DNA of 64,000 nucleotides, taken from the NCBI GenBank assembly GCA_963825165.1, contig CAWGRY010000003.1:129605-193604 (forward strand), in the 5' to 3' direction. The position numbers and the translations under genes were made by a program. The number at the start of each line of letters is the position of its first letter. Position 1 is the stretch's first letter. Positions 1 to 35,400 of this stretch are shown here, piece after piece. This DNA is from an uncultured Bacteroidales bacterium (lineage in GTDB: Bacteria > Bacteroidota > Bacteroidia > Bacteroidales > VadinHA17). Under the pieces are notes generated by a model, which had not been told where the DNA came from, did no database searches, and worked only from the letters and a program-made list of their open reading frames with translations.

Positions 1-347
1 GATGATCCTGCACTGCGCGGGTTGCTGAGGGAAGCCCTGGAAAAAAGGAAATATGTCGTAATAACAGCCAGCGACGGAAGAGAAGCACTTGCAAAATTCC
101 GCCCTTCGGTTATCGATCTTGTAATTACTGACCTCCTGATGCCTGAAGAGGATGGACTGATGGTTATAATGAAGATCAGGGAGATTAAGCCTTCGACAAA
201 GATGATTGCTATCAGCGGGGGGGAAAGGCAGGCCCGGGAAGCTACCTTCTCATGGCCAGCAAGCTTGGAGCAGACCTTGTATTTTCAAAACCGTTCCTTC
301 CTTCCGAACTGGTGCAGAAGGTGAAAGAGATGCTGGATAAACATTAA
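1..347 (+). pseudogene. CheY-like response regulator receiver domain, 5'-truncated by the window edge and frameshifted in a G7 run
   Basis: Frame 1 reads DDPALRGLLREALEKRKYVVITASDGREALAKF...VITDLLMPEEDGLMVIMKIREIKPSTKMIAISGG and then turns to nonsense (stop 322-324). The adjacent frame from ~225 reads KAGPGSYLLMASKLGADLVFSKPFLPSELVQKVKEMLDKH* (stop 345-347), a normal receiver C-terminus. The switch point is the run of 7 G at 217-223. Confidence 0.75.
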
Positions 348-396
348 TATGAATTCCTTGTTATAACCTCAGGAAACAACCATTAAAAACAAATAT

Positions 397-912
397 ATGT
401 TAACAAAGAAAGTAGAAGAATTCTGCAACAGGCAGATTGAAAGAGAAGGATACTCCTCAAGCCTTTATCTTGCGATGGCATCATGGGCAGAGAACAAAGG
501 CCTGGCCGGCGTGGCATCATGGCTCTATGTGCAGTCCGACGAAGAACGGTTGCATATGCTTAAATTCATAAAATACGTCAATGAACGTGGCGGAACAGCT
601 GTTTTGCCGGCATTCAAGCAGCCACCCGTGAAATTCAAAAGTGTTCCGGACATGTTTAAAGACGTGTTGAAACACGAACAATTCATTTCAGCCAGCATCA
701 ATGAAGTTCTTGCCGTCGCCAACGATGAAAAGGATTTCGCCACTGCCAATTGGATACAGTGGTTTGTAAACGAGCAGATACAGGAGGAGAGCAGTGCAAA
801 GATCATCCTTGATAAACTTGCCCTCGCGGGTGAGTCCGGTCTCTATTTCCTGGACAGAGATATAATGGCCCTGAGAGCGGCTGCTGAACCGGCAGCCCCG
901 CCAGTAGCTTAA
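397..912 (+). CDS. ftnA: non-haem ferritin (Ftn family)
   Basis: 171-aa ORF with ferritin-like motifs EREGYSSSLYLAMASW, SDEERLHMLKFIKYVNERGG, VLKHEQFISASIN and WFVNEQIQEE. Confidence 0.9.
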   Translation: MLTKKVEEFCNRQIEREGYSSSLYLAMASWAENKGLAGVASWLYVQSDEERLHMLKFIKYVNERGGTAVLPAFKQPPVKFKSVPDMFKDVLKHEQFISASINEVLAVANDEKDFATANWIQWFVNEQIQEESSAKIILDKLALAGESGLYFLDRDIMALRAAAEPAAPPVA

Positions 913-930
913 AAGATCATTGCCACAGAG

Positions 931-964
931 AAGGCTGTCCTGAATAACCGGACAGCCTTTTATT
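931..964 (+). terminator. Rho-independent terminator after ferritin gene
   Basis: AAGGCTGTCC (931-940) pairs with GGACAGCCTT (950-959) as a 10-bp stem, followed by TTTATT. Confidence 0.7.
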
Positions 965-988
965 CATTCATTGAGCCGGAAAATTGAT

Positions 989-996
989 TACTTTTG
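989..996 (+). promoter_or_regulatory. Bacteroidota-type -7 promoter box (TAnnTTTG) for secA
   Basis: TACTTTTG lies 27 nt upstream of ATG 1023. Confidence 0.5.
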
Positions 997-1022
997 CGGC
1001 ATATTTTTAAAAATATCGTTAA

Positions 1023-4000
1023 ATGAGCTTTGTAAGCAAAGTACTTACTGTTTTCCTGGGCGATAAAGAGGCACGCGATCTTAAGGAGATAAATCCTTTC
1101 GTTGGAAGGATCAAGAGCGAAACGGCTCTCATTACTTCTCTTTCAAATGATGCCCTGCGTGACCGTACTGCTGCCCTTAAAAAGGAAATAAGGGAATCCA
1201 TTGCAGCAGAAGAACAGGAGATCCGTGATCTGAAAGCCGGGGCCGACAAAGAAGAGGACATCAACAGGAAAGAAGAACTCTATAATCAGGTAGATAAGAT
1301 CGACAAACAAATCCTTGAGAAACTTGAGAAAAAGCTTGACGAGGTACTGCCGGTAGCCTTTGCAATAATGAAGGATACTGCGAGGCGCTTCAAGGAAAAC
1401 GAAGTTCTCGAGGTGACGGCAAGGGACTGGGACCGCGATCTGGCTGCAACACGTCCTTCTATAACCGTCGAAGGCGACAAAGCCAACTGGAAGAACAGAT
1501 GGATGGCCGGGGGGAACGAAATCCTCTGGGATATGGTGCACTACGATGTGCAGCTTATCGGCGGCGTGGCACTGCATAAGGGCAATATTTCCGAAATGGC
1601 CACCGGCGAGGGAAAAACACTCGTGGCTACATTGCCGGTATTCCTGAATGCGCTCGCAGGCCGCGGAGTACATATAGTTACCGTCAACGACTACCTGTCA
1701 AAACGTGACTCGGAATGGATGGGCCCGCTGTACGAATTTCACGGACTGTCAGTGGATTGCATCGATAAACATGAGCCTAACTCCCCGGCGCGCCGCAAGG
1801 CATATAACTCCGACATCACTTTCGGAACGAACAATGAGTTTGGATTTGACTACCTGCGTGATAATATGGCGATTAACCCCGAGGACCTTGTCCAGAGGAA
1901 GCACCATTACGCTATTGTTGACGAGGTCGACTCAGTGTTGATCGATGACGCGAGGACCCCTCTCATCATTTCCGGTCCTACGGCCAAAAGCGATACGCTT
2001 CAGTTCGATGAGTACAAGCACAAAGTGGAGGTGCTGGTAGGTGCCCAGAGAAAACTGGTGACACAACTGCTTGCAGATGCAAAGAAAGCGCTCAATGACG
2101 GTAAGAACGATGACGCAGGACTGATGCTTCTGAGAGCTTATAAAGGACTGCCGAAAAACAACGCACTGATAAAATATCTCAGCGAGGAAGGAGTAAGGTC
2201 TCTTCTCCAGAAGACCGAGAACTTATACATGCAGAATAACTCCAAGGATATGCCCAAGGCGACCGAAGAGCTGTTCTTTGTTATCGATGAGAAAGCCAAC
2301 TCCATCGAGCTGACGGAGAAGGGGCATGACCTGATCTCTACCTCCGTGGAAGATGCCAGCTTCTTCGTGCTGCCTGACGTGGGCAGCAAAATAGCCGACA
2401 TTGAAAAGACCGTAAAGGATGAGACTGCAAAAATGAGAGCCAAGGATGAGCTGCTGCAGGACTTTGCAGTCAAATCGGAACGGGTTCATACCATGACACA
2501 GCTTCTCAAGGCTTATACGCTCTTCGAGAATGACGTCGAATATGTGGTGATGGATAACAAGGTGAAGATCGTTGATGAACAGACCGGTCGTATACTTGAA
2601 GGACGCCGGTACTCAGACGGTCTGCATCAGGCCATCGAAGCCAAGGAAAATGTCAAGGTCGAAGCATCCACACAGACTTATGCCACCATCACTCTCCAGA
2701 ACTACTTCAGGATGTACCATAAGCTGGCAGGCATGACCGGTACGGCTGTCACCGAAGCAGGGGAGCTGTGGAATATCTATAAGCTTGATGTGGTGGTCAT
2801 TCCTACCAATGTGCAGGTAATAAGGAATGACCATGAGGACCTGGTCTACAAAACCAAGAGGGAGAAATATAATGCCGTCATTGACGAGATAGCAAACCTG
2901 AACAAGCAGGGCAGACCTGTACTCGTGGGTACAACCTCCGTTGAGATCTCGGAACTGCTCAGCCGCATGCTCAAGATGAAAGGCCTGAAGCATAACGTTC
3001 TGAATGCCAAGCTCCATCAGCGTGAGGCTGATATAGTGGCTGAGGCCGGAAAGACAGGCACCATCACCATCGCAACCAACATGGCAGGAAGGGGAACAGA
3101 CATCAAGCTCACACCCGAGGTGCGCAAAGCCGGAGGCCTGGCTATCATAGGCACTGAACGTCATGAGTCACGCCGCGTCGACAGACAGCTCAGAGGACGT
3201 GCCGGACGACAGGGAGACCCCGGCTCATCTCAGTTCTTCGTTTCACTGGAGGATGACCTGATGCGACTGTTCGGATCAGAGAGGATCTCGGGTATCATGG
3301 ACCGCCTGGGTCTGAAAGACGGGGAGATGATACAGCATTCCATGATCACAAAATCAATTGAGAGAGCCCAGAAAAAAGTCGAGGAAAATAACTTCGGAAT
3401 AAGAAAGAGGCTGCTTGAATATGACGATGTGATGAATTCGCAGAGGGAGGTCATCTACAGTAAGAGACGCCATGCACTCCTCGGCGAGAGACTGAGCGTC
3501 GATATTGCAAATATGATGTACGACGTCACCGAGAACACAGTGAACGTCAATAAAGATTCAGGTGATTTCGAGGAGTTTCAGTTCGGACTGATGAGAATAC
3601 TCTCCGTAGATTCACCGGTGGCCAGGCAGGAATTCATGAAAGGCAACAACCAGGATATCATTGATGCCGTCTACGATAAAGTGCTTGATGCCTACAGACG
3701 CAAGGGAGATGTGATATCAACTACAGCACTCCCTGTATTGAAAAATGTATATGAAAGGATGTCAGCTACTTACGAAAATGTGGTTGTGCCTATCACTGAC
3801 GGCGCCCGTACTTTCAATGTGATCACAAACCTGAAAGCTGCCGTCGATTCTGAAGGGAAGGAGCTGCTCCGCTCTTTTGAAAAGACCGCCGTGCTGGCAA
3901 CAATTGACGACGCCTGGAGGGAGCATCTTCGTGAAATGGATGACCTTAAGCAATCAGTACAGAATGCTTCATACGAACAGAAAGATCCTCTTCTCATATA

Positions 4001-4340
4001 TAAGTTCGAGTCCTTCGAGCTCTTCAGGACAATGGTGAACAAGGTTAACCAGGATGTGGTCAGCCTGCTGATGAAGGGCTCTATTCCGGTCACCTCACCT
4101 GATAATGTAAGGGAGGCTCAGCGGCGCAAACAGGTTGACATGAGCAGGCTCAGGACACAGAAAAGCGACTTCGAGAGCTCCTTCAGCGGAGACGGATCAC
4201 CGGAGAAAAAACAGCAGCAGACCGCACCCGTCAGGGTCGACAAGAAAGTCGGAAGGAATGATCCGTGCCCTTGCGGCAGTGGTAAGAAATACAAGCAATG
4301 TCACGGAAAGAACATCAGCGACGCTCCTGCGGCTGTTTAG
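1023..4340 (+). CDS. secA: preprotein translocase ATPase SecA
   Basis: 1105-aa ORF. Walker [19 protein letters not shown]-like [33 protein letters not shown], and a C-terminal zinc finger [14 protein letters not shown]. Confidence 0.97.
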
Positions 4341-5268: not shown

Positions 5269-5844
5269 TCAGGCTCTTGAGCCGGGGCCGCTGATCATTG
5301 TAAGATAATGCATGGCTTGCTCCAGGAAGAATGCAATGCTGAATGGACGGGGTGTCTTGATCATCAGGTCATACGGTATTTTCTCAGGCTCATCTGAGAT
5401 GTCCGGACCCACCTTCATCGGTGCAGCCGACATCGAAGTAATATACATAAGCTGGAAGAGTGATGAAGGGTTGATATCAATTATCAGGTCAAATTTTGAA
5501 TTGATGAATTCCTTTGCATCACCTGAGGTAGGGATAAACACCCAGTTAAGGTCTTTCTTCTTCAGAAACTTCATGTAGGAAAGGCCTGTTAGCCTGTCAG
5601 GTACACTCTTGCCAGGCACCCAGGTCAGTACCTCTACGCTCTTGTCCATCTCCATAAGCTGTCTGTTCAGGGCTGCGAGGTGCTGAAAGTCCTTTTCAAA
5701 AGTAGCGTCCCAGAGGATACCAACCTTTTTTACTTTTTCAATATCGAATCCGGGCTTCAGCCTTCTTGCCGATGAGAGGCGGTTCCGGAGTATCATCCGT
5801 CCGGCTTTTTGTCTGAGGCTTCCGAAAAGTTCCATTGAATGCAA
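5269..5844 (-). CDS. hypothetical protein of unknown function, between ligA and dapA
   Basis: 191-aa ORF tightly packed in the minus-strand gene string. I recognise no motif. Confidence 0.5.
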   Translation of the reverse strand: MHSMELFGSLRQKAGRMILRNRLSSARRLKPGFDIEKVKKVGILWDATFEKDFQHLAALNRQLMEMDKSVEVLTWVPGKSVPDRLTGLSYMKFLKKKDLNWVFIPTSGDAKEFINSKFDLIIDINPSSLFQLMYITSMSAAPMKVGPDISDEPEKIPYDLMIKTPRPFSIAFFLEQAMHYLTMISGPGSRA

Positions 5845-7922: not shown

Positions 7923-9047
7923 TCAGCTCCAGATTCCGGGTATCACAGTTCCGCAACTGCATTTTCCGTTTTTCAGTCTGTCAGCTACGATCCGGAAGCC
8001 GCTTCTTTCGATCACCTTCTGTTTGCATGACGGGCAGATTGTATCATCAATACTTGTTCCTGGCACATTACCTATATAAATGTATTTAAGGCCTTCTTCG
8101 CGTGCGATCGCTGCAGCAATGTCAAGGATGCTGGCAGGGGTGGGAGGCAGATGCTCGAGCTTGTATTGTGGCTGAAAACGACTGAAGTGTATTGGTACAT
8201 CGGTGAACCCGTTGTCAGCAAGCCACCGGCACATGAGCCTGATCTCTTCCGGCTTGTCAGTCCAGCCCGGGACAATGAGGTTGGTGATCTCAAGCCACAC
8301 GCCTTCATCCCTGTATATCTTCAGCGCATCAAGAACAGGTTGAAGCTTGCCACCGCTAAGCTTAAGATATGTACTTTCATTGAACGATTTGAGATCGATA
8401 TTGGCGCCGTCGATATAGCGGCAGAGCTCTTTAAGCGGCTCCCTGTTGATGTAGCCGTTTGAATGCATAATATTCTTTATTCCTTCGGCGCGCGCTGCCT
8501 TTGATGTCTCATATACATATTCATAGAAAGTAACGGGCTCCGAATAGGTGTACGCTATAGACTTGCAGTTGCCTGATATGGCATTTGCCACCACATCTTC
8601 CGGAGGCATATCATAGTTCCTTGTCTTGTCGGGCGAGGTCTGTGAGATAGTCCAGTTCTGACAGTTGAGACAGGCAAAATTGCATCCGGCAGTTGCAATG
8701 GAGAATGCTGTTGACCCCGGAAGAAAATGATAGAGTGGTTTTTTCTCAACAGGATCAATATTCACCGCACACGGATTGCCAAAGGCCATGGTATATAGCT
8801 TTGACTTCCTGACGACCCTGTTGTGGCAGTCACTTAACTCACCTTCTTTCGGTGTACACTCATTGGGGCAGATCTTGCACACTACCCCGCGGGCGCTCTC
8901 CTCCTGGAACATTGCCAGCCTTTCCTTTGGCGCCGGTTTCATGCCCTGCAGGCTCAAAGGAGCAATGACACCGGCTGCCACCGCCAGCGAACCCTGCCTG
9001 GCGAATGTCCTTCGTGTGATCTTTCTGCCTCTGACCCCCAATGTCAT
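7923..9047 (-). CDS. amrS: AmmeMemoRadiSam-system radical SAM enzyme (AmrS-like) with an N-terminal twin-arginine signal-like extension
   Basis: 374 aa. CX3CX2C motif GCNFACLNCQNW, IDPVEKKPLYHFLPGS, and an N-terminal Cys cluster CKICPNEC...C. It shares an operon with a Memo/AMMECR1 fusion. The N-terminus is MTLGVRGRKITRRTFARQGSLAVAAGVIAPLSLQG. Confidence 0.85.
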   Translation of the reverse strand: MTLGVRGRKITRRTFARQGSLAVAAGVIAPLSLQGMKPAPKERLAMFQEESARGVVCKICPNECTPKEGELSDCHNRVVRKSKLYTMAFGNPCAVNIDPVEKKPLYHFLPGSTAFSIATAGCNFACLNCQNWTISQTSPDKTRNYDMPPEDVVANAISGNCKSIAYTYSEPVTFYEYVYETSKAARAEGIKNIMHSNGYINREPLKELCRYIDGANIDLKSFNESTYLKLSGGKLQPVLDALKIYRDEGVWLEITNLIVPGWTDKPEEIRLMCRWLADNGFTDVPIHFSRFQPQYKLEHLPPTPASILDIAAAIAREEGLKYIYIGNVPGTSIDDTICPSCKQKVIERSGFRIVADRLKNGKCSCGTVIPGIWS

Positions 9048-9073
9048 GCGTGTCTGGATTGGTGACCATAAAG

Positions 9074-11494
9074 CTAATGCTTAAAGGGCACTGAAACAAT
9101 AATTCCGGCGATTAAAATTACGGCTGCAAGAATAAAAGATGCATTGCTTATTCCTGCCAGTGGTACAAGTACAGTTGAAACTGTCAGGTATCCCAATGCT
9201 GATCCGGCCAGGTCGGAGGCATACACTCTCCCGGTAATCCCCTGTATGCCTGATAATGTCAGCATCCGGTACACTGACCCGGTGAGGAACCCGGCTGCAA
9301 GCAGGAAGATGAAAATGACAGGTAACACAATGCCGGGAGCTGTTGTGACAAACGAGGGTGCAAGAAATCCTGTGACACCATATATGACTGCCAGTAGCGC
9401 AGTACGGATCATAATCGGCCCGGCTGCGCTGATGCGGCCCCAGCCTGCTCCGGCAGCCAGTCCCGCCATTAGCAGCGTCAGCACGAAAGCGGAGAGTAAA
9501 TAAATGTTACCAACCGTCAACTGCACTATAAAGATCATAATCATGCCAAAGCCGGCCAGTCCTGCGGAAGAGGCAAACATCATCAGGCTGTCCCTGCGTA
9601 TAAAAACAAAGGGGATGATAACCATCAGAACCATCACTGCAACAACGCCGCCCGCTATTCCTTTGCTCTCAAGCGACAGCATATTTGTGAACCACGATGA
9701 TACGGGCCTGGTTGCAGTATTGAAACCGGCCGTGGTGTCAGCCTGCATAATGATCTGCCCGCTCTTGCGCCTCGATTCTTCATCGTTAAGATAATCACCG
9801 TTCACGTAACTGTTCTGAATTCCGCTTCTTGCCGCCAGAACGGAGATTGAATCAGACAGGGGACTGTCTGATGCAATGACATAAAGCAATGATCCGGGTA
9901 TCAGAACTACATGGTCAAAGACCTCGCTGAGGGCGTTGTATACCGGAGAAAATCCCTTAATGTAGCTTTCAGGAGAATAGTTAAAATAAGGCATCGGGGT
10001 ACACAGGAAGATCCCTCCGGGGGAGAGATGTTCCTTTACCAACCTGAAATATTCAATGGTGAAGTACCTGTCGACTGATAACGTGGCAGGCGGGGGTATG
10101 AGCTGCAGGACAGCATCGTAAATATCACTGTTTCTCCTCATAAAGGAGAGAGGGTCACTCTTTCTGACGCTTATTGTCATTCTGACGGCCAGTGTGTCGT
10201 GCGCACCTTCGGCAGCGATAATACCAGGGTCGTGTTCAAGGTATAACACCTCACCTATGTCATGTTTTTCAAGCTGTTCGATATGCTTCATCAGGCCGCC
10301 GGAAATCACCATTACCTTTTCATACTTATCTCTCTGGAGAAGTGCATAATGAATATTCTCCTCAGCCCTGATGATATCGCCGGAAAAGAAGAGAGGCCTG
10401 TGATCGTAAAAAATGACAGACTCGTCCCCGTAGGTGCCGGTGGTGATATTTCCGTAAGGGGTATCTGTGCTCTTCTCTGCCTTCACACCCCGCAGAAGCA
10501 CACTTCTTATGGCGGGGTCAGGGCTGAAGATCAACACAATCACCGCCATCAGAAATGCGCCTGTCATCGCTGTCCGGCGAACCCTGACGCGGTAGCCGGT
10601 GAGCATGACCACCAGGCTCACAGATAAAAGCAGAATAATAATGTACAGCTGATAGTTGGAAATGTAAAGGGTAACGTTGATGGTTGTGAGTATCCCGGCA
10701 GCAACCGAACCTGCCGTCTCGGTACTGAAACTGCTGCCCGGCACTATTGCACTGTCAAGTTGTCTTATCGCAGACAGCCTGATGAAGATGAATGATGAGA
10801 TGAAGGTAACGGGAGCCACGCTCACCGAAATTATGGCCAGGGTTTTTAGTACAGAGGGTGACTCGCCGGGCGCAATAAGAAACCTGTTCATAAACAGAAA
10901 AAAGAGCGGTGCAAGAGTCATGCCTGCAATCAGTGTCCACATCATCTTCCTCAGGTCATTTATGCCGGACCTTCCTCCGGTGATGGCACCGGCAGCGGCG
11001 ATGATCAGCCAGAGCCACAGGAAGAAGCCTGCAGAAGCCTCTGTTCCGCCCCCGAGAATGACCGCTTCGCGCATGAGAATAAACTGAACCGCTGAGCTCG
11101 CAAACCCTGTCAGCATAAGCAGCTTCGCGATTGCGTTACCGTTCAGTTCCCTATGTGCATAAGCTTCCCTTGCCCTTTCCGCGTCACTGTTTTTGTTTTT
11201 TCCGAAATAATATTGCAGATGCCAGGTCAGGTGAATTATTGCGGCGAACGCCATTGCGATGCCCGTCTCCACATGCCAGTGAAGCAGCTGCCCTGAAAAA
11301 GGTATATTCCACTTGTAGGTGATTTTCAGGGCCATGAACAGGCCGAATAAGCCAGCTGTCAGAAATGTACCAAACAGCGCCCAGTTCCAGAAGCGCCGGT
11401 GAGATTGCTTATCAAGGAAACCGGTTGAAGAAAGGGAAAGAGTAAACAGATAAATTACGAGTATGGTCAGTCCTATCGGAAGAACATGATACAT
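9074..11494 (-). CDS. polytopic membrane protein with a central spermidine-synthase-like (class I MTase fold) domain
   Basis: 806 aa. Many hydrophobic segments occur in residues 1-330 and 620-806. The central soluble region has VMVISGGLMKHIEQLEKHDIGEVLYLEHDPGIIAAE ... YDAVLQLIPPP, resembling the SpeE GGGDG / D-x-D layout. An N-terminal His-rich TM pair reads LHWHVETGIAMAFAAIIHLTWHLQYY. Confidence 0.7.
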   Translation of the reverse strand: MYHVLPIGLTILVIYLFTLSLSSTGFLDKQSHRRFWNWALFGTFLTAGLFGLFMALKITYKWNIPFSGQLLHWHVETGIAMAFAAIIHLTWHLQYYFGKNKNSDAERAREAYAHRELNGNAIAKLLMLTGFASSAVQFILMREAVILGGGTEASAGFFLWLWLIIAAAGAITGGRSGINDLRKMMWTLIAGMTLAPLFFLFMNRFLIAPGESPSVLKTLAIISVSVAPVTFISSFIFIRLSAIRQLDSAIVPGSSFSTETAGSVAAGILTTINVTLYISNYQLYIIILLLSVSLVVMLTGYRVRVRRTAMTGAFLMAVIVLIFSPDPAIRSVLLRGVKAEKSTDTPYGNITTGTYGDESVIFYDHRPLFFSGDIIRAEENIHYALLQRDKYEKVMVISGGLMKHIEQLEKHDIGEVLYLEHDPGIIAAEGAHDTLAVRMTISVRKSDPLSFMRRNSDIYDAVLQLIPPPATLSVDRYFTIEYFRLVKEHLSPGGIFLCTPMPYFNYSPESYIKGFSPVYNALSEVFDHVVLIPGSLLYVIASDSPLSDSISVLAARSGIQNSYVNGDYLNDEESRRKSGQIIMQADTTAGFNTATRPVSSWFTNMLSLESKGIAGGVVAVMVLMVIIPFVFIRRDSLMMFASSAGLAGFGMIMIFIVQLTVGNIYLLSAFVLTLLMAGLAAGAGWGRISAAGPIMIRTALLAVIYGVTGFLAPSFVTTAPGIVLPVIFIFLLAAGFLTGSVYRMLTLSGIQGITGRVYASDLAGSALGYLTVSTVLVPLAGISNASFILAAVILIAGIIVSVPFKH

Positions 11495-11505
11495 CAGGTT
11501 ATATC

Positions 11506-13011
11506 TTATTCACCGAAGACATAGGCTTCATAGGTAAAAATCTCAGTATCCTTATCTTTCCATCCGTCCCAGCCAATACCTGCCTTATCACGGGCGCAGC
11601 AGCCGAGGAACTCGGTTACGCTCCAACCCCTTTCAGTAGCCACCTGGGGCAGCAGGGTGCCGGACCTGACACCTTTTTTGAGGTAGATGCCGTGCTTTCC
11701 GATCTTGATCTGATTGATGTCAGTAATCTTGGTCATCGGTCCCAGGACTGATATCTCAAGGTGTATATCAGGATATTCGGCGGTTGTAAGGGGAGAGAAC
11801 CTCGGGTCATCGAATGCTGCCTCCAGGGCCATTGTACCGATGACTTCCCAGAGGGGATCAGGAGAGGTGAACCGTCCGATGCAACCCCGCAGGTTACCAT
11901 CAATTGTAATTGTGACAAATGCTCCCAGCGGCTCTTTCAGGCGGGGTGTCAGCTTCGCAGCATCGACGGTGCGTGGCTTTGTTCCCCTGAGTTTTGCAGA
12001 GATAGATTCGCGTGCAATGCCCAGCAGGGTCTTCTTCTCCTCAGCTGTAAGCGAGAACTCATCCATAGGAGCGAGCTTATGTGCTTCAGGTGCCTTCTCA
12101 TCGACAACAATGGCATTGTACCCTACCACCTCATCCCTGTTCCCGTGAGGAGAATCTCCTGAATTTCTGTATTCGACATTACGTAGTCTCAGGCTGCTCT
12201 CATCTTCAGTGAGGTACAGGAGAATCAGCGCTGCTGTCCATCCGCACATGGCTGTGGAGAGGTTGTCGATTCCGGAAGCTTCCACATCCCTGATGGTCTT
12301 GAGGAAGACATCAGGATCACCGGTCAGAATAGCATCACTGGTGAGCTTGTCTGCCCTGACTGCTTCAGTATAGGATGGGTAATGCGAGAAATCGCTGCTT
12401 ATAATAAACAGGTTCCGTTCATTGAACCAGGGACTGAGCTCTGAGGCTATCAGGTCAAGCATGGTGATATTGCGCGTGCCCAGCAGTATAGGCACGACCA
12501 TAGGGGTTTTGCTGAAGTGAAACTGGATGAAGGGAAGCTGAACCTCCAGCGAGTGCTCCGACTTGTGTGCGTCATCCATATTAATGAACCATTTGCTTTT
12601 GCTTACCAGTTCGTCTCCCAGGGTCCTGTTCACCTGTACTGTGCCAAGCGGTGTCACCATATTGCCTGAAGTGAACACAGCGGCACCGTCGAATGAATAC
12701 CTGTGACTCACCCCTATAAGAAATATGTTGTCATACTCTGCGTCCTCAGGCACGGCTGCATAACCGGCCGCAGCAGTGTGTCCCGAATAGACATAACCGG
12801 CATGCGGCAAGATCAGTGCTCTCACCCTCTTACCGGAAGAAACACTTTTCAATGAGTTGAAATATCCTGCGAGCTCGCTATTCAGTTTGTCGCTGCCGGC
12901 AGGATAAAAGCTGCCTGCCACCGCAGGCTGCCTGTCATGCCCGGCTTCCTGTCCGTTGATGTTCATAAGCGGGATTATTAAAGTCATTAAGATAATACTA
13001 ACCGTTTTCAT
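11506..13011 (-). CDS. fused AmmeMemoRadiSam protein B (Memo-like) / protein A (AMMECR1-like) with a Sec-type signal peptide
   Basis: 501 aa. N-terminus MKTVSIILMTLIIPLMNINGQ, then the Memo start PAVAGSFYPAG and ILPHAGYVYSGHTAA. The C-terminal half has AMMECR1 motifs GAFVTITIDGNLRGCIGRF and GIYLKKGVRSGTLLPQV. Confidence 0.88.
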   Translation of the reverse strand: MKTVSIILMTLIIPLMNINGQEAGHDRQPAVAGSFYPAGSDKLNSELAGYFNSLKSVSSGKRVRALILPHAGYVYSGHTAAAGYAAVPEDAEYDNIFLIGVSHRYSFDGAAVFTSGNMVTPLGTVQVNRTLGDELVSKSKWFINMDDAHKSEHSLEVQLPFIQFHFSKTPMVVPILLGTRNITMLDLIASELSPWFNERNLFIISSDFSHYPSYTEAVRADKLTSDAILTGDPDVFLKTIRDVEASGIDNLSTAMCGWTAALILLYLTEDESSLRLRNVEYRNSGDSPHGNRDEVVGYNAIVVDEKAPEAHKLAPMDEFSLTAEEKKTLLGIARESISAKLRGTKPRTVDAAKLTPRLKEPLGAFVTITIDGNLRGCIGRFTSPDPLWEVIGTMALEAAFDDPRFSPLTTAEYPDIHLEISVLGPMTKITDINQIKIGKHGIYLKKGVRSGTLLPQVATERGWSVTEFLGCCARDKAGIGWDGWKDKDTEIFTYEAYVFGE

Positions 13012-13074
13012 AAAACAGCTGTTATCACCCGTAAAGATAAACTAAAAAAACGGTAAAAAAGCGGAAAAAAACAG

Positions 13075-13533
13075 TTAGATAAGTACGATATTTTCCTTAA
13101 TGGTGTTTCCGTCTTCATCAATGCCGTATAGCCTTATACCTACACTGCATGTGGCATCAGCCGTAACATCGAGGAACGGAGACAGAGATTCCCTTACATC
13201 TTCCTCACCCATGGAATCATACTCCTCAATATCAAAGTAAAGATGTACAAAAAGTATATGATCGCTTTTTTTGATCTTGGTCAGTGTCTTCAGAATCTTC
13301 CCCATCCAGATAACCGAGGATGTGTTAAAATAGTCGACGTTGAATTTCAGGTTTGTACTCTCGGCCGGGTTCTTGGCATATTCGCCCGCCCATTTATAAA
13401 GAGGCTCGAAAAATGATGATGCATTCTCCGGTAATGATTTGCCCGTAAAGGCCAATATACCTGTTTCTGCCACAAAACTCACCATCGGTGTCTTGGACGT
13501 GGCCTCAATCCTTATATCCTGTAGTTTAACCAT
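13075..13533 (-). CDS. DUF1987 / SiaC-family protein
   Basis: 152 aa. TSKTPMVSF...GILAFTGKSLPENASSFFEPLYKW...VDYFNTSSVIWMGKIL matches the SiaC/DUF1987 pattern (TP-V-F, G-S-PEN, YFNTSS). Confidence 0.75.
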   Translation of the reverse strand: MVKLQDIRIEATSKTPMVSFVAETGILAFTGKSLPENASSFFEPLYKWAGEYAKNPAESTNLKFNVDYFNTSSVIWMGKILKTLTKIKKSDHILFVHLYFDIEEYDSMGEEDVRESLSPFLDVTADATCSVGIRLYGIDEDGNTIKENIVLI

Positions 13534-19494: not shown

Positions 19495-20274
19495 ATGAAA
19501 AATGTAAGACAACTGCTTACAAACATTCCTGAACGACCATCCAAACCCAGGACTGAAGGCCTAACCATGATAATGGATAAAGGACTGAGCCTCAGGGAGG
19601 CTGAAGACTTAGCCGGAGTTGGAAGCGAATATGTCGATTTCGTGAAGCTTGGCTTCGGAACATCCGTTATCACACCTGATGTCGATAAAAAAATCAAAAC
19701 CTATCATAAGGCCGGGATGACGGTTTACCTTGGCGGAACACTCTTCGAAGCCTTCATTATCAGGGGAATGTTTAAGGAATATGTTAAGCTGCTGAAGGAA
19801 TCGGGGATCACAATGGTTGAGATATCTGACGGCTCCTATGAGTTTGAACACGGCGTGAAGCTTGACTATATCAGGAAACTGTCAAAGGAATTCACCGTCA
19901 TCTCCGAAGTGGGATCAAAGAAAAAAAACATCGTATATACACCTGCGCAGTGGGTTGAGATGATGAAGTCAGAACTTGAGGCAGGCTCAGTGAAAGTGAT
20001 AGCTGAAGCACGGGAATCTGGCACGATAGGAATATATAATGATGACGGCTCGGTAAACCTTGACCTGATAAATGCAATATCGAAGCAGATTGGCTTTCAT
20101 AATGTTCTCTGGGAAGCGCCGATGAAACCGCAGCAGGCCTGGTTTATCCTCAACTTCGGCGCCAACGTCAACCTTGGCAACATAGCTCCGACCGAGATAA
20201 TAGCCCTCGAATCACTGAGGCTTGGACTGAGGAGCGACACCTTCTTCAGGTTTCTCCCGGATGATATGAAATGA
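19495..20274 (+). CDS. comA: phosphosulfolactate synthase family protein (ComA/YitD-like)
   Basis: 259 aa with RPSKPRTEGLTMIMDKG, YVDFVKLGFGTS, LGGTLFE, ISEVGSKK, VIAEARESGT and ALESLRLGLRSDTF, all characteristic of the ComA family. Confidence 0.85.
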   Translation: MKNVRQLLTNIPERPSKPRTEGLTMIMDKGLSLREAEDLAGVGSEYVDFVKLGFGTSVITPDVDKKIKTYHKAGMTVYLGGTLFEAFIIRGMFKEYVKLLKESGITMVEISDGSYEFEHGVKLDYIRKLSKEFTVISEVGSKKKNIVYTPAQWVEMMKSELEAGSVKVIAEARESGTIGIYNDDGSVNLDLINAISKQIGFHNVLWEAPMKPQQAWFILNFGANVNLGNIAPTEIIALESLRLGLRSDTFFRFLPDDMK

Positions 20275-23280: not shown

Positions 23281-24702
23281 TTAGATGCCGTAACTCAGGT
23301 TCCTGATCATTTCATAGATACCGCTTGCGAAACCTGTGATCACAATACCGGCAATACAGATTGCAAGTCCCAGCTTCGACATGAAATCACTTTTAAATTC
23401 CGGTATGGGATTTTCGCTTTTATTGATGAACATGGCCTTGACCACAAGCAGATAATAGTACAATGCAACAATTGTATTAAGAACTGCAATAGCTACAAGT
23501 ACAAAGAATCCTTTTTCTGCAGCTGCGGCAAAAAGAAAGAACTTGCCGAAGAATCCTGCCACAGGCGGTATTCCCGCAAGTGAAAACATGGCAAGCATCA
23601 TTGTTAAGCTGAGTTTCGGATTGGTTCTGTACAATCCGTCATAATCATCCATGCTCTCCTTTCCGGTCTTTTCGGCAATGATAGCGACAATGCCGAATGC
23701 AGCAAGGTTGGTGAAGATATATATAAGCGCGTAGTAAATCACCGTGGTCATTCCAAACCTGGTACCGCTGATGAAGCCGAGAAGGAAGAAGCCTGCCTGG
23801 GCTATTGATGAAAAAGCCAGGAATCGTTTCATGTTTTTCTGCCTCAGAGCAAACAGGTTACCTATTGTTATGGTGAGCACGGCAATCACCCATATCACCT
23901 TTTCCCATGTGTCAATAATAACCGGGAAGACATTGTAGAGAATTATAATGAAGATGAATGCAGCTGCTCCCTTGCTTATCACAGAAAGGTATGATGCCAC
24001 GTTCACCGGAGCGCCTTCGTAGACGTCAGCGGTCCAGAGATGGAACGGTACCAGCGACATTTTAAAGCTCATACCCGAGAAGAAGAAAATGAACCCGAGA
24101 ATTGTGAGAGGCACTGATGAAGCCCTGGCAGCAACATCTGCAAAATACAGTGATCCGACGGTTCCATAGATCATTGACAGGCCATAGAGAAGGATCCCCG
24201 ATGACAATGCTGATGAGAGGATCAGCTTTATACCTGCTTCAGCCGATCTGTTCTGATATCTTTCGTATGCGGCCAGGGCGGCAAGAGGAATTGTTGCCAG
24301 CTCAATCCCGATATAGAACATCAGGAAATGGCCTGCAGAGATCATGAAATTCATTCCTATAAGCGTGGAGATCAGAAGCATGAAGTATTCATGGAGCCTG
24401 TCCCTGTTTTCAGGTCTGCCAAGCCATGTATATGACTGTATGAGAACAATGAGGGTCCCTATATTCAGGATATTCTTCATCAGCGTGGTGGTGCGCCCTG
24501 CCAGGTACATTCCCCCGAAAAGGGTTCCCTCAGGAGATGGGAGCATGCCGATTGCGGTAACGACTGCGAAAAGAATCACCCCAAAGCCCCTGAACCTTTC
24601 TTTCCTGGTTTCACCGGTGAAAACTTCCGCCACCAGAATTATCAGAAAGGCCAAAGTCAGAACCAGCTCGTGGCGCATCATCAAAAAATTATCAAGACTC
24701 AT
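23281..24702 (-). CDS. nuoN: NADH-quinone oxidoreductase subunit N
   Basis: 473-aa polytopic antiporter-like subunit, last of the nuo string. Confidence 0.9.
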   Translation of the reverse strand: MSLDNFLMMRHELVLTLAFLIILVAEVFTGETRKERFRGFGVILFAVVTAIGMLPSPEGTLFGGMYLAGRTTTLMKNILNIGTLIVLIQSYTWLGRPENRDRLHEYFMLLISTLIGMNFMISAGHFLMFYIGIELATIPLAALAAYERYQNRSAEAGIKLILSSALSSGILLYGLSMIYGTVGSLYFADVAARASSVPLTILGFIFFFSGMSFKMSLVPFHLWTADVYEGAPVNVASYLSVISKGAAAFIFIIILYNVFPVIIDTWEKVIWVIAVLTITIGNLFALRQKNMKRFLAFSSIAQAGFFLLGFISGTRFGMTTVIYYALIYIFTNLAAFGIVAIIAEKTGKESMDDYDGLYRTNPKLSLTMMLAMFSLAGIPPVAGFFGKFFLFAAAAEKGFFVLVAIAVLNTIVALYYYLLVVKAMFINKSENPIPEFKSDFMSKLGLAICIAGIVITGFASGIYEMIRNLSYGI

Positions 24703-24741
24703 TTTGCTGCTGGATTAATTATTCTCCTGTTATACAATATA

Positions 24742-26232
24742 TTACATAAGTTTTTGCACAATTGGCATAATGCTGTCCCTGATGATACCTGACAGTCCCG
24801 AAGGCAACATGCCTATATATACGATACCTGTCAAAAGTGCGAGGATAGACAGCTTCTCGTACCATCTGGCATCATTGAAATCGTTGTAATGAGTGTCCCT
24901 TAATGGTCCGAGAAGGAGTATTGCAATAACCCTCAGGATGTATACAGCTGTTATAACTATTGATGTTATCGCAATGATTGTGGCTACCCTGTGGAACGTA
25001 TCAGGATGCTCGAAAGCTCCGAAGAACACGTTCATCTCTGCCACGAATCCGCTCAGACCGGGTAATCCCAGCGATGCGAGACCTGCAATGACGTATGCAA
25101 CGCCAAGGAAGGGAATAACTTTCATCAGTCCGCCCATTTCACTTATTATCCTTGTGTGCGTCCTGCCGTAGATCATGCCTATCAATGCAAAGAAGAGGGC
25201 TGTCATAAGACCGTGTGAGACCATCTGGATAATCGCTCCGGTCATGGCTGTCTGGTTCATCATCAGTATCGCAAAGAGCACCAGTCCGCAATGGCTGACC
25301 GAAGAGTATGCGTTGATATACTTCAGATCCTTTTGCACAATGGCACCAAAAGCGCCATAGACAACACTTATTGTTGTCAGGATAATAAATATCCATGCCA
25401 TTTCATTTGCTGCTTCAGGCATGAGAAACATGGCTACCCTGAAACAACCGTAACCTCCGAGCTTCATCAGTACGCCGGCATGGAGCATTGATACGGCAGT
25501 AGGAGCAGAGGAGTGACCGTCAGGAGACCAGGTATGCAGGGGGAACAAAGCCCCGAGAACGCCAAAACCAACGAAGGTCAGCGGAAAGAACCACCTCTGG
25601 GCCTCAATCGGAATTGTGACCTTTGAAATCTCGATTATGTTGAATGTAAACTCACCGCCGTCAGGAGCCGAGTTAAAATATATACCGAATAACCCGATCA
25701 TAAGGAGGGCAGAACCTCCCATAAGCATCAGGGTCAGCTTCATGGCAGCGTACTCCTTTGGCCCGCTGCCCCAGATCCCGATCAGTATGTACATTGGAAT
25801 AACTGCAAGCTCATAAAAGAGAAACATTGTGAACAGATCCAGTGATATGAAGAACCCAAAGACGCCCGTTGCCAGAAGGATAAGAGAAACGAAAAACTCC
25901 TTCCTCAGATCATCCATCTCCCATGATGCATATATCCCGGCAAAAACAACAATCGATGTGAGAGCTATCATGGCAACCGAGATCCCGTCGACACCTACGG
26001 TATAGTATATATTCAGGCTTTTAAACCACTCGTAGCTGCTCACCAGGAGCATCTGATCCGTGTTGCCTGCCTTTCGCTCCGCGAGATACAGGAATACTAT
26101 TATGAAAGCAACAATAAGCTGAATGCCCATGCCAATAGCAGATACGACTTTCGCCTGTCGTGCATCCTTTACAAGCATAATGCCTGTGATTGTCAGGAGC
26201 GGAATTATAACCAGGCAGGATAATATATTCAT
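24742..26232 (-). CDS. nuoM: NADH-quinone oxidoreductase subunit M
   Basis: 496-aa antiporter-like subunit with HTWSPDGHSSAPTAVSMLHAGVLMKLGGYG. Confidence 0.92.
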   Translation of the reverse strand: MNILSCLVIIPLLTITGIMLVKDARQAKVVSAIGMGIQLIVAFIIVFLYLAERKAGNTDQMLLVSSYEWFKSLNIYYTVGVDGISVAMIALTSIVVFAGIYASWEMDDLRKEFFVSLILLATGVFGFFISLDLFTMFLFYELAVIPMYILIGIWGSGPKEYAAMKLTLMLMGGSALLMIGLFGIYFNSAPDGGEFTFNIIEISKVTIPIEAQRWFFPLTFVGFGVLGALFPLHTWSPDGHSSAPTAVSMLHAGVLMKLGGYGCFRVAMFLMPEAANEMAWIFIILTTISVVYGAFGAIVQKDLKYINAYSSVSHCGLVLFAILMMNQTAMTGAIIQMVSHGLMTALFFALIGMIYGRTHTRIISEMGGLMKVIPFLGVAYVIAGLASLGLPGLSGFVAEMNVFFGAFEHPDTFHRVATIIAITSIVITAVYILRVIAILLLGPLRDTHYNDFNDARWYEKLSILALLTGIVYIGMLPSGLSGIIRDSIMPIVQKLM

Positions 26233-26259
26233 ATTCAGATATTTTTCGACTTATGACGC

Positions 26260-28179
26260 TTATTTTACCAGGTAAATAAAGATCAGGACAAGGGCAACGG
26301 CCCCTGATACAAAGACAAATCCGTACTGCTGCAGCTGACCTGACTGCAGGCCTTTGATACGGTTTGAGACAGCCTGTGTCACCCATGCAATTCCGTTCAT
26401 TGTCCCGTCGACAATATGCCGGTCAAACCATGCTACCGGTTGTGAGACACGCCTGAATATTATCTTCTTCGTGATAAAAAGGTACAGCTCGTCAATATAG
26501 AACTTGTTGTATGCCCATTTATAGCTGTGTTTGAATGTTGCTGCAAGCCTGCCAGGAAGTGTGTTTTCTTTCCTGTACATCACCCAGGCAATTGCAATAC
26601 CAGTAAGGGCGATGATGAGCGAGGGTACCGCAACGATCCATTCAATATGTGACTCAAACGGCGCGCCGTCCGAAGTCACCAGCCTGTTGAAAGGAAGCAA
26701 ACCTGAGAACACCGAACCGAAGGCAAGGATGATCAGAGGAATGGTCATAGTTGCAGGAGATTCATGCGGAGTGTGCTCGTACTTCCTGTCATGCCCGTGG
26801 AATATTGAAAAATAGAGCCTGAACATGTAGAACGCTGTCAGACCTGCCACAAGATACTCGATGGCAAACAGCACCTTATCATGGTGGAAGGCCGCTGTGA
26901 GTATCTCATCCTTGCTGAAGAAGCCTGAAAGCGGAAAAAGACCTGAAATGGTGAGGCATGCAATAAGGAAAGTGATGTTGGTTATCGGCAGGTGTTTCCT
27001 GAGCCCTCCCATCTCCGTCATGTAATTGCTGTGCACGGCATGAATAACCGAGCCGGCACCGAGGAACAAAAGGGCTTTGAACATTGCATGGTTAAACAGA
27101 TGCCAGTTCGACGCCATGAAACCGAGACCCTCATGTCCTCCGTAACCGGAGACACCAAGGCTGAAAATCATATAACCTATCTGGGAGATCGTGGAATAGG
27201 CGAGGACCCTCTTGATATCTGTTTGTGTCATGGCTATCACGGCAGCAAAGAGGGAGGAGAAAGCTCCCACCCATGCGATGATTTGCAGTGCCTCGGGAGC
27301 TGCGAAATAATAAACCGGGAACATCCTGGCGACAAGATAAACACCTGCGACAACCATGGTAGCAGCATGTATGAGAGCAGAGACCGGTGTGGGGCCTTCC
27401 ATGGCATCAGGAAGCCATATGTGCAGCGGGAACATTGCTGACTTGCCGGCACCTCCCACGAATATAAGTATCATTGACCATGTCATGACAGACATCCCGA
27501 GAAAGACAGCACCGCCTGTACTTGTGATTGCAGGTCCGTTAAGGTCGGTAAGGGTCACAAAATCAAATGTTTTTGTAGTAAATGACAGTATCAGGATACC
27601 GATCAGAAAACCCATATCGGCAAACCGGGTTACGATGAATGCTTTTTTCGAGGCAGCGACAGCGCTTGGCCTGGAATAATAAAATCCGATCAGCAGATAA
27701 GAGGAAATACCAACCAGCTCCCAGAATATGTACATCTGGAAGATATTGGTGGCGACAACAAGACCCATCATTGAGAAGGTGAACAGTGAAAGGAAAGCGT
27801 AATACCTCTCAAAGCCTTTCTCGCCTTTCATATAACCCAGGCTGTAGATGTGAACCATGAATGAGACTGTGCTGATCACCACAAGCATCATCACCGAGAT
27901 CGGATCCAGAAGAATACCCATATCAATATGGAGGCGATCTGTAAGTGTAAGCCATGTGCTGTTACATGCTATTATCTTCTGAAAGATTCCATCGGTAAGG
28001 CCGGCCCCCCAGAAATACTTCACAGCAGTTGCATATGAGAGAGCCGTAACTATTGCCAGGCCTGTTGTGCCAGTAAGCCCTGAAATACGGGCTTTAAGCT
28101 TCATCCCGAAGAGACCCAGCACAAGAAAGGTGACGAATGGGACGATTAGAATCCAAACTGTATATCCGAAATCTGCCAT
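26260..28179 (-). CDS. nuoL: NADH-quinone oxidoreductase subunit L
   Basis: 639 aa with WLPDAMEGPTPVSALIHAATMVVAGVYL and the long C-terminal extension typical of NuoL. Confidence 0.93.
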   Translation of the reverse strand: MADFGYTVWILIVPFVTFLVLGLFGMKLKARISGLTGTTGLAIVTALSYATAVKYFWGAGLTDGIFQKIIACNSTWLTLTDRLHIDMGILLDPISVMMLVVISTVSFMVHIYSLGYMKGEKGFERYYAFLSLFTFSMMGLVVATNIFQMYIFWELVGISSYLLIGFYYSRPSAVAASKKAFIVTRFADMGFLIGILILSFTTKTFDFVTLTDLNGPAITSTGGAVFLGMSVMTWSMILIFVGGAGKSAMFPLHIWLPDAMEGPTPVSALIHAATMVVAGVYLVARMFPVYYFAAPEALQIIAWVGAFSSLFAAVIAMTQTDIKRVLAYSTISQIGYMIFSLGVSGYGGHEGLGFMASNWHLFNHAMFKALLFLGAGSVIHAVHSNYMTEMGGLRKHLPITNITFLIACLTISGLFPLSGFFSKDEILTAAFHHDKVLFAIEYLVAGLTAFYMFRLYFSIFHGHDRKYEHTPHESPATMTIPLIILAFGSVFSGLLPFNRLVTSDGAPFESHIEWIVAVPSLIIALTGIAIAWVMYRKENTLPGRLAATFKHSYKWAYNKFYIDELYLFITKKIIFRRVSQPVAWFDRHIVDGTMNGIAWVTQAVSNRIKGLQSGQLQQYGFVFVSGAVALVLIFIYLVK

Positions 28180-28194
28180 CTCTGCTCTGCTTTA

Positions 28195-28512
28195 TCAGTA
28201 TTTTAATTCGTTTACGTTTTCAACGTTGATGTTCGAGAACCTCCTGTAAATGCTGATGATAATTGCGATGGCGACGGCAGCTTCCGAAGCGGCAACGGCA
28301 ATTACAAAGAGGCTGAAAAAATGCCCGTCAAGCTTGCCGGGAAACAGATATCTGTTGAAAGCCAGAAAGTTAATGTTAACGGAGTTCAGAATGAGTTCAG
28401 ATGACATCAGTATGGTTATGAGGTTTCTCCTGGTTAGAAAACCATAGATGCCTGTAAAGAACATTATCGTCGCCACGATGATGTAAAGCTCCAATGGAAT
28501 GCCTGGGTTCAT
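28195..28512 (-). CDS. nuoK: NADH-quinone oxidoreductase subunit K
   Basis: 105 aa with three TM segments, ELILNSVNINFLAF and AVAASEAAVAIAII. Confidence 0.9.
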   Translation of the reverse strand: MNPGIPLELYIIVATIMFFTGIYGFLTRRNLITILMSSELILNSVNINFLAFNRYLFPGKLDGHFFSLFVIAVAASEAAVAIAIIISIYRRFSNINVENVNELKY

Positions 28513-28524
28513 ATAGTCTTCAGT

Positions 28525-29061
28525 TTACTTGTTTTTTTCTTCATCTCTTACAGGGCTGCCCTTTTTGGCGATTACTATCGCACCAATCATTGCGGCCACC
28601 AGCAGCACGGAGATAACTTCAAACGGCAGCACATAACCGTCGTTGCCTGTTCCAAGCAGGCTCTTTCCTATCACATTCATGTTTACCTCGAGGGCAGCAG
28701 CAGTATCAGCGGCAAAAGTATGCTTCAGGATTGTGGTAATGACCACGATGGCCCCTCCAATGACTGCCAGGGCTGTAAAGAGTCCCTTCTTCCACTCAAT
28801 AGGCTCAAACTTATGGCTTATCTGGCTGGTGAGCAGAATTGAAAATATGATCAGCACAACTATACCGCCTGCATACAATGTAAGCTGTACGGCTGCCAGA
28901 AACTGGTAATTAAGCAGGAAGTAAAGGCCGGCAGTGGCTATCAGGACAAAGAGGAGAGAGACCGCTGCACGGAGGATCTTCCGGGTGGTAACCGTCAGCA
29001 CCGAGAAAACGATGATTACAATTGCAAAGACTGCGAACATTATCTGATTGCCTTCCATCAC
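28525..29061 (-). CDS. nuoJ: NADH-quinone oxidoreductase subunit J
   Basis: 178 aa. Assigned from its position between nuoI and nuoK and the motif AAVQLTLYAGGIVVLIIF. Confidence 0.88.
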   Translation of the reverse strand: MMEGNQIMFAVFAIVIIVFSVLTVTTRKILRAAVSLLFVLIATAGLYFLLNYQFLAAVQLTLYAGGIVVLIIFSILLTSQISHKFEPIEWKKGLFTALAVIGGAIVVITTILKHTFAADTAAALEVNMNVIGKSLLGTGNDGYVLPFEVISVLLVAAMIGAIVIAKKGSPVRDEEKNK

Positions 29062-29537: not shown

Positions 29538-29566
29538 TAGCTTTCTATCAGTATTGGTTCATGTTC

Positions 29567-30655: not shown

Positions 30656-30677
30656 ATCCGGATTCTGTTACTTTTTT

Positions 30678-35391: not shown

Positions 35392-35400
35392 TGAAATAAA

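Follow-up and report, generated by a model that had tools for sequence, protein, structure and literature searches.

The stretch of DNA analysed here, called the window throughout, comprises 64,000 nucleotides from an uncultured Bacteroidales bacterium of the GTDB lineage VadinHA17 (assembly GCA_963825165.1, contig CAWGRY010000003.1, of 962 kb, positions 129,605 to 193,604 of the forward strand). On its minus strand it encodes an AmmeMemoRadiSam system, that is, a Memo-like protein (protein B), an AMMECR1-like protein (protein A) and a radical S-adenosylmethionine (SAM) enzyme of the AmrS type. The conserved unit, as judged from gene neighbourhoods, is a Memo-AMMECR1 fusion, a membrane protein of 806 amino acids and AmrS. 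Our data indicate, with a probability of roughly 0.55, that the locus is an extracytoplasmic version of AmmeMemoRadiSam in which the membrane subunit would supply electrons and possibly also the adenosyl cofactor. Conservation of Memo and of AMMECR1 extends from archaea to humans, and both have links with human disease.

All genes of the locus lie on the minus strand. The fusion gene, which joins AmmeMemoRadiSam proteins B and A, is at 13011-11506 (501 amino acids), the gene of the membrane partner with its 17 transmembrane helices (TMs) at 11494-9074 (homologues are also about 806 amino acids long) and the AmrS gene at 9047-7923 (374 amino acids). A DUF1987/SiaC gene (13533-13075, 152 amino acids) precedes the fusion, and ligA (7891-5885) is the next gene after AmrS; the intergenic distances from DUF1987 through the fusion, the membrane gene and AmrS to ligA are 63, 11, 26 and 31 nucleotides. 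A preliminary description of this DNA had reported the first four open reading frames (ORFs) with short gaps between them and had assigned the trio to the AmmeMemoRadiSam families. ORF calling returned exactly the same coordinates, and all three AmmeMemoRadiSam hidden Markov models (HMMs) were matched above their cut-offs. The fusion scored 226.7 bits against TIGR04336 (protein B, Memo-like; cut-off 26) over residues 27-303 (12103-12933) and 164 bits against TIGR04335 (protein A, AMMECR1-like; cut-off 99) over residues 328-499 (11515-12030), and the Pfam families Memo and AMMECR1 were matched at 184 and 173 bits. The Memo domain contains the motifs PHAGY, GVSH, SSDFSHY and MCGW; the AMMECR1 domain has the LRGCIG motif and the PDB relatives 1vaj and 1zq7. 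AmrS scored 340.1 bits against TIGR04337 (cut-off 220) and its cluster motif CX3CX2C is present as CNFACLNC. Its nearest solved relative is the pyruvate formate-lyase (PFL)-activating enzyme 3c8f (E=1.6e-10 over residues 118-281). Public annotation already names the trio, and it labels the membrane protein 'hypothetical' or 'spermidine synthase'.

Gene spacing was of little help in delimiting the system. Comparably short gaps run on past AmrS into ligA, DUF6913 and dapA, and a terminator scan found no terminator-like site in the gaps of the stretch from DUF1987 to dapA; thus the boundary of a 'four-gene' unit is not readable from the gaps. With a sigma-70 model, whose coverage does not extend to Bacteroidetes promoters, promoter and terminator counts were not different from those of shuffled controls and no site fell in an intergenic gap. 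The G+C content is about 0.50 over 8-13 kb and ranges from 0.42 to 0.55 along the first 20 kb, without a step at the edges of the module.

It is the comparison between lineages that defines the module. A relative of the membrane protein is encoded by 273 GTDB species, and 80 species loci that include it were retrieved. The order fusion, membrane gene, AmrS is kept in all 80 of them and in the Bacteroidales-type metagenome loci. In the 80 GTDB loci it is part of a shared Bacteroidales block comprising argS, SiaC, fusion, membrane gene, AmrS, ligA, DUF6913 and dapA. Since synteny in Bacteroidales extends over this entire block, adjacency there cannot decide whether the membrane gene is a member of the system. 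The block would equally suit an ordinary membrane-bound polyamine aminopropyltransferase or transporter that has nothing to do functionally with the trio, as the 'spermidine synthase' label of public pipelines and the trio-less relatives at loci L089 and L090 might suggest. However, a third clade (26-29% identity) found in a metagenome scan, whose membrane proteins have the same full-length architecture, retains just the three genes with entirely different flanks. An all-against-all ORF comparison of its 17 loci recovered the membrane gene in 17/17, Memo-AMMECR1 in 15/17 and AmrS in 14/17, in unchanged order; the best other neighbour was seen in 4/17, and argS, SiaC, ligA, DUF6913 and dapA were absent. 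Moreover, distant relatives of the membrane protein adjoin AmrS genes, overlap them or are fused into their contexts elsewhere, including in another phylum. The third clade and these AmrS-adjacent relatives together settle the membrane gene as part of the system. Wherever the module was surveyed the membrane gene lies between the fusion and AmrS. Its position amid the trio, which the preliminary description had pointed out, reflects a conserved partner and not a chance insertion.

Two elements of the same description did not survive this comparison. The first is the four-part composition, in which DUF1987 was counted as a component. DUF1987/SiaC was rejected as such, since neither locus L080 nor any third-clade locus has it; together with ligA, DUF6913, dapA and argS it is Bacteroidales-specific synteny. 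In near-clade loci the DUF1987/SiaC-like gene is 99-100% identical, compared with 92-95% for ArgS, and is thus unusually constrained. The DUF6913 gene (5269-5844, minus strand; Pfam, 91 bits) stands constantly between ligA and dapA in the Bacteroidales block. The second is the strict operon. In two loci a gene of 798 amino acids on the opposite strand separates the membrane gene from AmrS (L076:10524-12920 and L127:6488-8884), so co-transcription is not obligatory and AmrS must have its own promoter there. By eye the inserted gene resembles an FtsX/MacB-type ATP-binding cassette permease. Locus L122 has a gap of 1.9 kb at the corresponding place.

Both soluble proteins of the window carry export-type N-termini, as had been proposed, and hydrophobic N-termini are kept in every related locus. 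The fusion begins with a Sec-type signal peptide of 20 residues, MKTVSIILMTLIIPLMNING, followed by Q (12952-13011), and this hydrophobic N-terminus is conserved. Among the Bacteroidales orthologues the hydrophobic N-terminus is followed by Q in all loci (G-Q, S-Q or A-Q), a junction which we take to be a signal peptidase I site of the Bacteroidetes 'Q-rule' kind. The third-clade orthologues have a hydrophobic segment and then either Q or a lipobox-like SGC or PGC. In every orthologue this segment is short and ends immediately ahead of the Memo domain, and the fusion homologue at locus L085 also has a signal peptide.

AmrS starts with a Tat-like (twin-arginine translocation) signal of 35 residues, KITRRTFARQGSLAVAAGVIAPLSLQG (8943-9047). 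Its consecutive RR is followed at +2 by a hydrophobic residue and then by a core (h-region) of weak hydrophobicity, ITRRTFARQGSLAVAAGVIAPLSL, and the passenger is an Fe-S enzyme. An in-frame RR (55 loci) or KR (23 loci) followed by an A/G/S-rich h-region was found in 78/78 Bacteroidales AmrS loci with an intact 5' end, including those which offer only TTG or GTG starts. The AmrS proteins of L084, L085 and L088 pass the curated Tat model TIGR01409 at 17.0-21.4 bits. The signal of the window AmrS falls short of that formal standard for a Tat substrate, yet its resemblance to one is strong. No Tat component was matched among the window ORFs of at least 220 amino acids that were scanned against Pfam, a set that leaves out most ORFs and all those of TatA size. 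A search of 1.84 billion cluster representatives was used to place AmrS among its relatives, and the 30 closest 50%-identity representatives were classified by their N-terminus. Export features were found in 24 of them (10 Tat-like, 5 with a hydrophobic N-terminus and 9 with long hydrophobic fusions), and one further representative had a long N-terminal fusion without a hydrophobic segment; from rank 60 on the representatives are mostly of cytoplasmic type. The prevalence of export features among the nearest relatives means that exported AmrS is a sizeable subfamily and not peculiar to this genome.

It could be argued that the system is cytoplasmic, the hydrophobic stretches being membrane tethers at the inner face, or products of mis-called starts, that keep the enzymes near those loops of the membrane protein which face the cytoplasm. 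The shortfall of the window AmrS against TIGR01409 agrees with this, as does KR in place of RR in many relatives; gene callers often place the AmrS start 3' of the signal, giving 339-348 amino acids, and SAM and reductants are located in the cytoplasm. Against it, all 78 loci keep, in frame, the peptide encoded 5' of the alternative ATG, the positive N-terminal region and weakly hydrophobic h-region predict an N-in/C-out orientation, the fusion bears classical cleavable or lipoprotein signals, AmrS homologues pass the Tat model, and the membrane protein has a single large soluble domain, whose predicted location is outside. A wholly cytoplasmic system is thus poorly supported and we consider it improbable. 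We infer that both soluble proteins do leave the cytoplasm.

An AlphaFold2 (AF2) model of the 806-amino-acid membrane protein (predicted local distance difference test, pLDDT, 77; predicted TM-score, pTM, 0.75) gives, in order, 3 TMs, a disordered linker, 7 TMs, a mixed alpha/beta domain at residues 337-609 and about 7 TMs. The first 7-TM bundle (residues 119-325; 10520-11140) is delimited by the AF2 helices, by the alternation of lysine and arginine (K+R) between loops and by co-linearity with distant relatives. The second bundle (residues 615-806, about 7 TMs; 9077-9652) is delimited by alignment, AF2 and charge pattern and includes an invariant Y-A-S-D-L-A-G motif. MFS_1 was matched in 5/28 members of the superfamily to which the protein belongs (best 6e-6). 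Topology was read from the mean K+R content per loop in 59 sequences, which was 0.0, 2.9, 1.5, 4.0, 0.0, 2.7, 0.1, 2.6, 0.2 and 2.3 before the alpha/beta domain and RR, 0, 1.7, 0.15, 2.2, 0 and 1.2 after it. This alternation holds across the 17 TMs without exception and therefore places the N-terminus outside, the C-terminus inside and the alpha/beta domain, hereafter the SpeE-like domain, outside. A distant relative, P0306, bears on the same question: 8 predicted TMs lie between its SpeE-like domain and an FMN_bind domain with a TGAT flavinylation motif, which puts the two domains on the same side, and ApbE is encoded alongside. ApbE-dependent flavinylation takes place on the periplasmic side. 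The SpeE-like domain is predicted to be periplasmic.

This domain (9668-10486) has a spermidine-synthase fold. The membrane protein matched Pfam Spermine_synth at 28.5 bits (cut-off 22.9), the family profile reached solved thermospermine and spermidine synthases at E=1e-15 (best 6bq2), and Foldseek with the full model gave 1uir at E=1.4e-9 with TM-scores (target) of 0.65-0.69. The 50 matches listed were all spermidine or thermospermine synthases, a result that does not inform on the TM parts. The domain is catalytically degenerate, as QLIPPP stands in place of the catalytic D-x-x-D-P and SGGL in place of GGGEG; it retains acidic residues for the binding of ribose (E420) and adenine (D447). The SpeE equivalog models (NF002956, TIGR00417 and others) were not reached, with 34.5 against 472 and 23.3 against 249.6. 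An active aminopropyltransferase was rejected, since the catalytic aspartates are gone and the equivalog scores are far too low. These properties also tell against the ordinary polyamine enzyme or transporter considered above, all the more because the domain is predicted to be periplasmic and decarboxylated SAM is not expected there. Pure synteny is poorly supported, and of the explanations weighed here we regard it as the most improbable.

The N-terminal 3-TM domain (residues 1-97; 11204-11494) is a candidate haem-b electron-transfer module, on the strength of its invariant columns and of sub-threshold cytochrome-b matches. W36, N37, W73, H74, V75, H88 and Y95 are invariant over 26 sequences from three clades, and the two invariant histidines, H74 and H88, lie on one helix 14 residues apart. 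When the 26 members were scanned singly, sub-threshold matches were obtained to DUF4405 (12/26), Ferric_reduct (12/26), Ni_hydr_CYTB, the prokaryotic cytochrome b561 family (9/26), and Cytochrom_B561, the eukaryotic one (8/26). These four families, all of the di-haem transmembrane cytochrome b clan, are the top four by number of sequences matched. The window sequence itself gave 16.6 bits against Ferric_reduct, below the cut-off of 28, and a comparison of the domain with PDB sequences returned noise only.

Evidence for a need of electrons comes from more distant relatives. Distant SpeE-like membrane relatives (20-25% identity) are co-linear with the window protein over residues 122-605 (E=8e-14) and lack the first ~120 residues. 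Their AmrS-adjacent contexts are a Thermodesulfobacteriota metagenome-assembled genome (MAG; L088) and two metagenome contigs without lineage assignment. At L088 the SpeE-like membrane gene is convergent to Tat-AmrS and Memo-AMMECR1. At L086 it overlaps a gene for a DsbD_2-AmrS fusion, and the contig of P0306 encodes ApbE, a radical SAM enzyme and Memo-AMMECR1, followed by the SpeE-like membrane protein fused to FMN_bind and Fer4_5. Close AmrS relatives likewise contain DsbD_2, or FMN_bind plus Fer4_5, as fused domains, and the charge pattern of the DsbD_2-AmrS fusion, which has six TMs, puts AmrS outside. The window-type 3-TM module is missing from the L086 relative, whose AmrS bears DsbD_2 instead. 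These fusions of electron carriers to AmrS or to its SpeE-like partner imply that an exported AmmeMemoRadiSam has to be supplied with electrons from the side of the cytoplasm. Export-signal versions of AmmeMemoRadiSam appear to have repeatedly gained transmembrane electron carriers, along with a transporter-like protein with a catalytically dead SpeE fold.

A few further features of these relatives were recorded. Upstream of the DsbD_2-AmrS/SpeE-like pair, L086 has four tandem paralogous ORFs of ~270 amino acids each (347-3742, minus strand). Three of them were scanned against Pfam and gave nothing significant (one weak match, E=0.006), and a Memo or AMMECR1 gene was not found on this 10-kb contig. 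Directly 5' of the Tat-AmrS/exported Memo-AMMECR1 pair of L085 is an ORF of 81 amino acids (3996-4241, plus strand) with a weak zinc-ribbon-like match, sub-threshold in Pfam, and by eye a hydrophobic C-terminus. The AmrS relatives P0125 and P0130 are fused to CBM11 or to Reg_prop/PorZ-like beta-propeller repeats, and at L084:9115-10089 a protein of 324 amino acids adjoining AmrS looks by eye like a secreted beta-propeller. These fusions and the L084 neighbour suggest further extracytoplasmic variants with other partners.

The following arrangement would account for these observations. Memo-AMMECR1 would be exported by Sec and released at the periplasmic face, and it would be lipid-anchored in some relatives. 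AmrS would fold and be loaded with its Fe-S clusters in the cytoplasm before Tat-type export or anchoring. With SAM and low-potential electrons within reach, a cytoplasmic AmmeMemoRadiSam needs three proteins only, and the 806-amino-acid protein could be the membrane subunit that makes relocation workable. Its His-bearing 3-TM module would bind haem and, in the manner of a b-type cytochrome, conduct electrons through the membrane, a role that elsewhere could be taken by DsbD_2 or by NosR-like FMN_bind/Fer4_5 in fusions with AmrS or with the SpeE-like protein. The two-bundle core would be transporter-like. The SpeE-fold domain could bind the adenosyl cofactor and pass it on, with SAM entering and 5'-deoxyadenosine or methionine leaving, or dock the soluble enzymes, or both, and the components may form a complex at the membrane. 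The substrate would presumably be an envelope molecule, either periplasmic or embedded in the membrane. The fully specified form of this scheme, with a Tat-exported AmrS and a Sec-exported fusion acting on an envelope substrate and with b-haem electrons, SAM export and 5'-deoxyadenosine retrieval all passing through the membrane protein, is tentative and somewhat doubtful. The membrane- or periplasm-facing machine of the preliminary description stands insofar as it rests on the export signals, the predicted periplasmic domain and the dedicated membrane partner; the four-part operon with DUF1987 attached to it falls away.

Several observations weigh against an extracytoplasmic, electron-supplied system. 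The N-terminus of the window AmrS (KITRRTFARQGSLAVAAG) matched neither TIGR01409 nor Pfam TAT_signal, a near-clade variant reached 15.1 bits against the TIGR01409 cut-off of 16.7, and the KR variants gave no match. All cytochrome-b-type matches of the N-terminal domain are below the Pfam thresholds, with a best E=1e-4 (DUF4405). This domain has 3 TMs only, and the second pair of histidines, H32 and H92, conserved in at least 90% of sequences, is substituted in some third-clade members. The membrane protein of the window has no Pfam MFS match itself, and an internal comparison of its two TM bundles (hhalign) gave a weak repeat signal (E=0.0036, probability 9%). It is not evident that the potential of haem b or of thiol-disulfide carriers is low enough to reduce a radical SAM cluster, and we know of no SAM exporter and of no periplasmic radical SAM enzyme. 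Lastly, L085 encodes Tat-AmrS and an exported fusion with no SpeE-like gene within 13 kb, and the SpeE-like membrane proteins of L089 and L090 occur apart from any trio. These exceptions make the partnership recurrent and frequent, not universal or obligatory, and L085 shows that at least one lineage can do without the SpeE-like partner.

The same architecture and location could also serve the substrate in place of the cofactor. An envelope precursor, lipid-linked or isoprenoid, would then be flipped or presented by the transporter-like core and bound or alkylated by the SpeE-like domain, and Memo, AMMECR1 and AmrS would modify it on the periplasmic side of the inner membrane. A conserved and predicted periplasmic module agrees with this, and the exported trio of L085 that does without the membrane protein would fit a lineage-specific substrate adaptor. 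Some AmrS relatives have PMT-type glycosyltransferases as neighbours or carry a fused CBM or beta-propeller domain, a hint at envelope polymers. Burroughs et al. 2019 is said to have tied Memo contexts to the modification of aliphatic isoprenoids. On the other hand, the catalytic Asp pair of aminopropyltransferases has been lost, no conserved lipid-carrier or glycosyltransferase genes stand beside the module, and the recurrent pairing with electron conduits and the cytochrome-b-like N-domain would be left unexplained. We consider a substrate-presenting membrane subunit rather unlikely, and a subunit that supplies electrons and possibly the adenosyl cofactor remains the reading that we prefer.

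An exported and membrane-coupled version narrows the problem posed by Memo, AMMECR1 and their radical SAM partner, as it implies that the system can act outside the cytoplasm. The parts added on leaving the cytoplasm, namely electron conduits and a nucleoside-binding transporter-like protein, would give a clue to what is consumed by the core enzymes. Export, if real, would challenge the confinement of radical SAM chemistry to the cytoplasm and predict a route for SAM over the inner membrane. If SAM export and periplasmic chemistry both hold, neither a SAM-delivery device nor a radical SAM system of the periplasm would have been described before this one. The module is compact and recurrent, and 273 GTDB species have relatives of its membrane protein.

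Other features of the window were noted as well. At 57295-61668 (minus strand) a gene for a DNA polymerase III alpha-like protein of 1006 amino acids follows a Y-family (impB/mucB/samB) polymerase, in a layout like that of an ImuB-DnaE2 mutagenesis cassette. A ComA-type (2R)-phospho-3-sulfolactate synthase (19495-20274, plus strand; 294 bits) suggests sulfonate or sulfonolipid-type metabolism. Two pairs of phosphate acyltransferase and acetate/butyrate-kinase-family genes follow each other at 42961-48120 (plus strand), the second pair being far more divergent. A class A RNase P RNA (35015-35395, plus strand; 234 bits), one tRNA (54083-54155, minus strand) and several genes of the NADH:quinone oxidoreductase (nuo) operon (23281-31799, minus strand) are ordinary chromosomal content.

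The searchable literature, which does not cover Burroughs et al. 2019, holds no account of an exported AmrS, of a periplasmic radical SAM enzyme or of this membrane partner. Searches of it for AmmeMemoRadiSam, for AmrS/AmrA/AmrB and for AMMECR1 with radical returned incidental mentions, and for membrane-bound spermidine synthase nothing. This agrees with the preliminary description, which knew of no characterised function for the architecture. Among the closest known systems is canonical AmmeMemoRadiSam, which the locus resembles in the clustering of its genes and in having the metal-site motifs of Memo, the LRGCIG motif of AMMECR1 and CX3CX2C. The canonical system consists of three soluble proteins without a membrane partner, whereas here proteins A and B are fused and begin with a Sec or lipoprotein signal, a Tat-like signal precedes the radical SAM enzyme, and a 17-TM protein joins them as a conserved fourth component. 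The PFL-activating enzyme shares the radical SAM core with AmrS, and the Joint Genome Institute (JGI) annotation names the window AmrS 'PFL activating enzyme'. However, AmrS scores 61 against a cut-off of 232 for that enzyme, it carries an export signal as well as additional N- and C-terminal Cys motifs, and no glycyl-radical enzyme is encoded near it. The DUF1987 protein matches Pfam SiaC at 83 bits and so recalls the SiaABCD partner-switch, but it reaches 59.8 against the cut-off of 150 of NF038265, and its neighbours are argS and the Memo-AMMECR1 gene in place of SiaA, SiaB and SiaD.

Electron suppliers of the NosR/NapH type (FMN_bind plus Fer4_5, with ApbE) and of the DsbD/CcdA type (DsbD_2) form fusions with close relatives of AmrS or with the SpeE-like partner. 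The window contains neither DsbD_2 nor FMN_bind/Fer4_5 and has in their stead a cytochrome-b-like 3-TM domain, with sub-threshold matches only. Compared with the NosR-like P0306, the module stands at the N-terminus of the SpeE-like partner, whereas the FMN_bind/Fer4_5 of P0306 is at the C-terminal end. The 'fused MFS/spermidine synthase' proteins (MFS, major facilitator superfamily; the NCBI name for P0294) have in common with the window protein, co-linearly, a polytopic region and a spermidine-synthase fold. By this correspondence the membrane component is a member of an uncharacterised 'fused MFS/spermidine synthase'-like superfamily. Within it, the family of the window stands apart by an additional 3-TM His-bearing N-domain, by SGGL in place of GGGxG and by its strict tie to Memo-AMMECR1 and AmrS.

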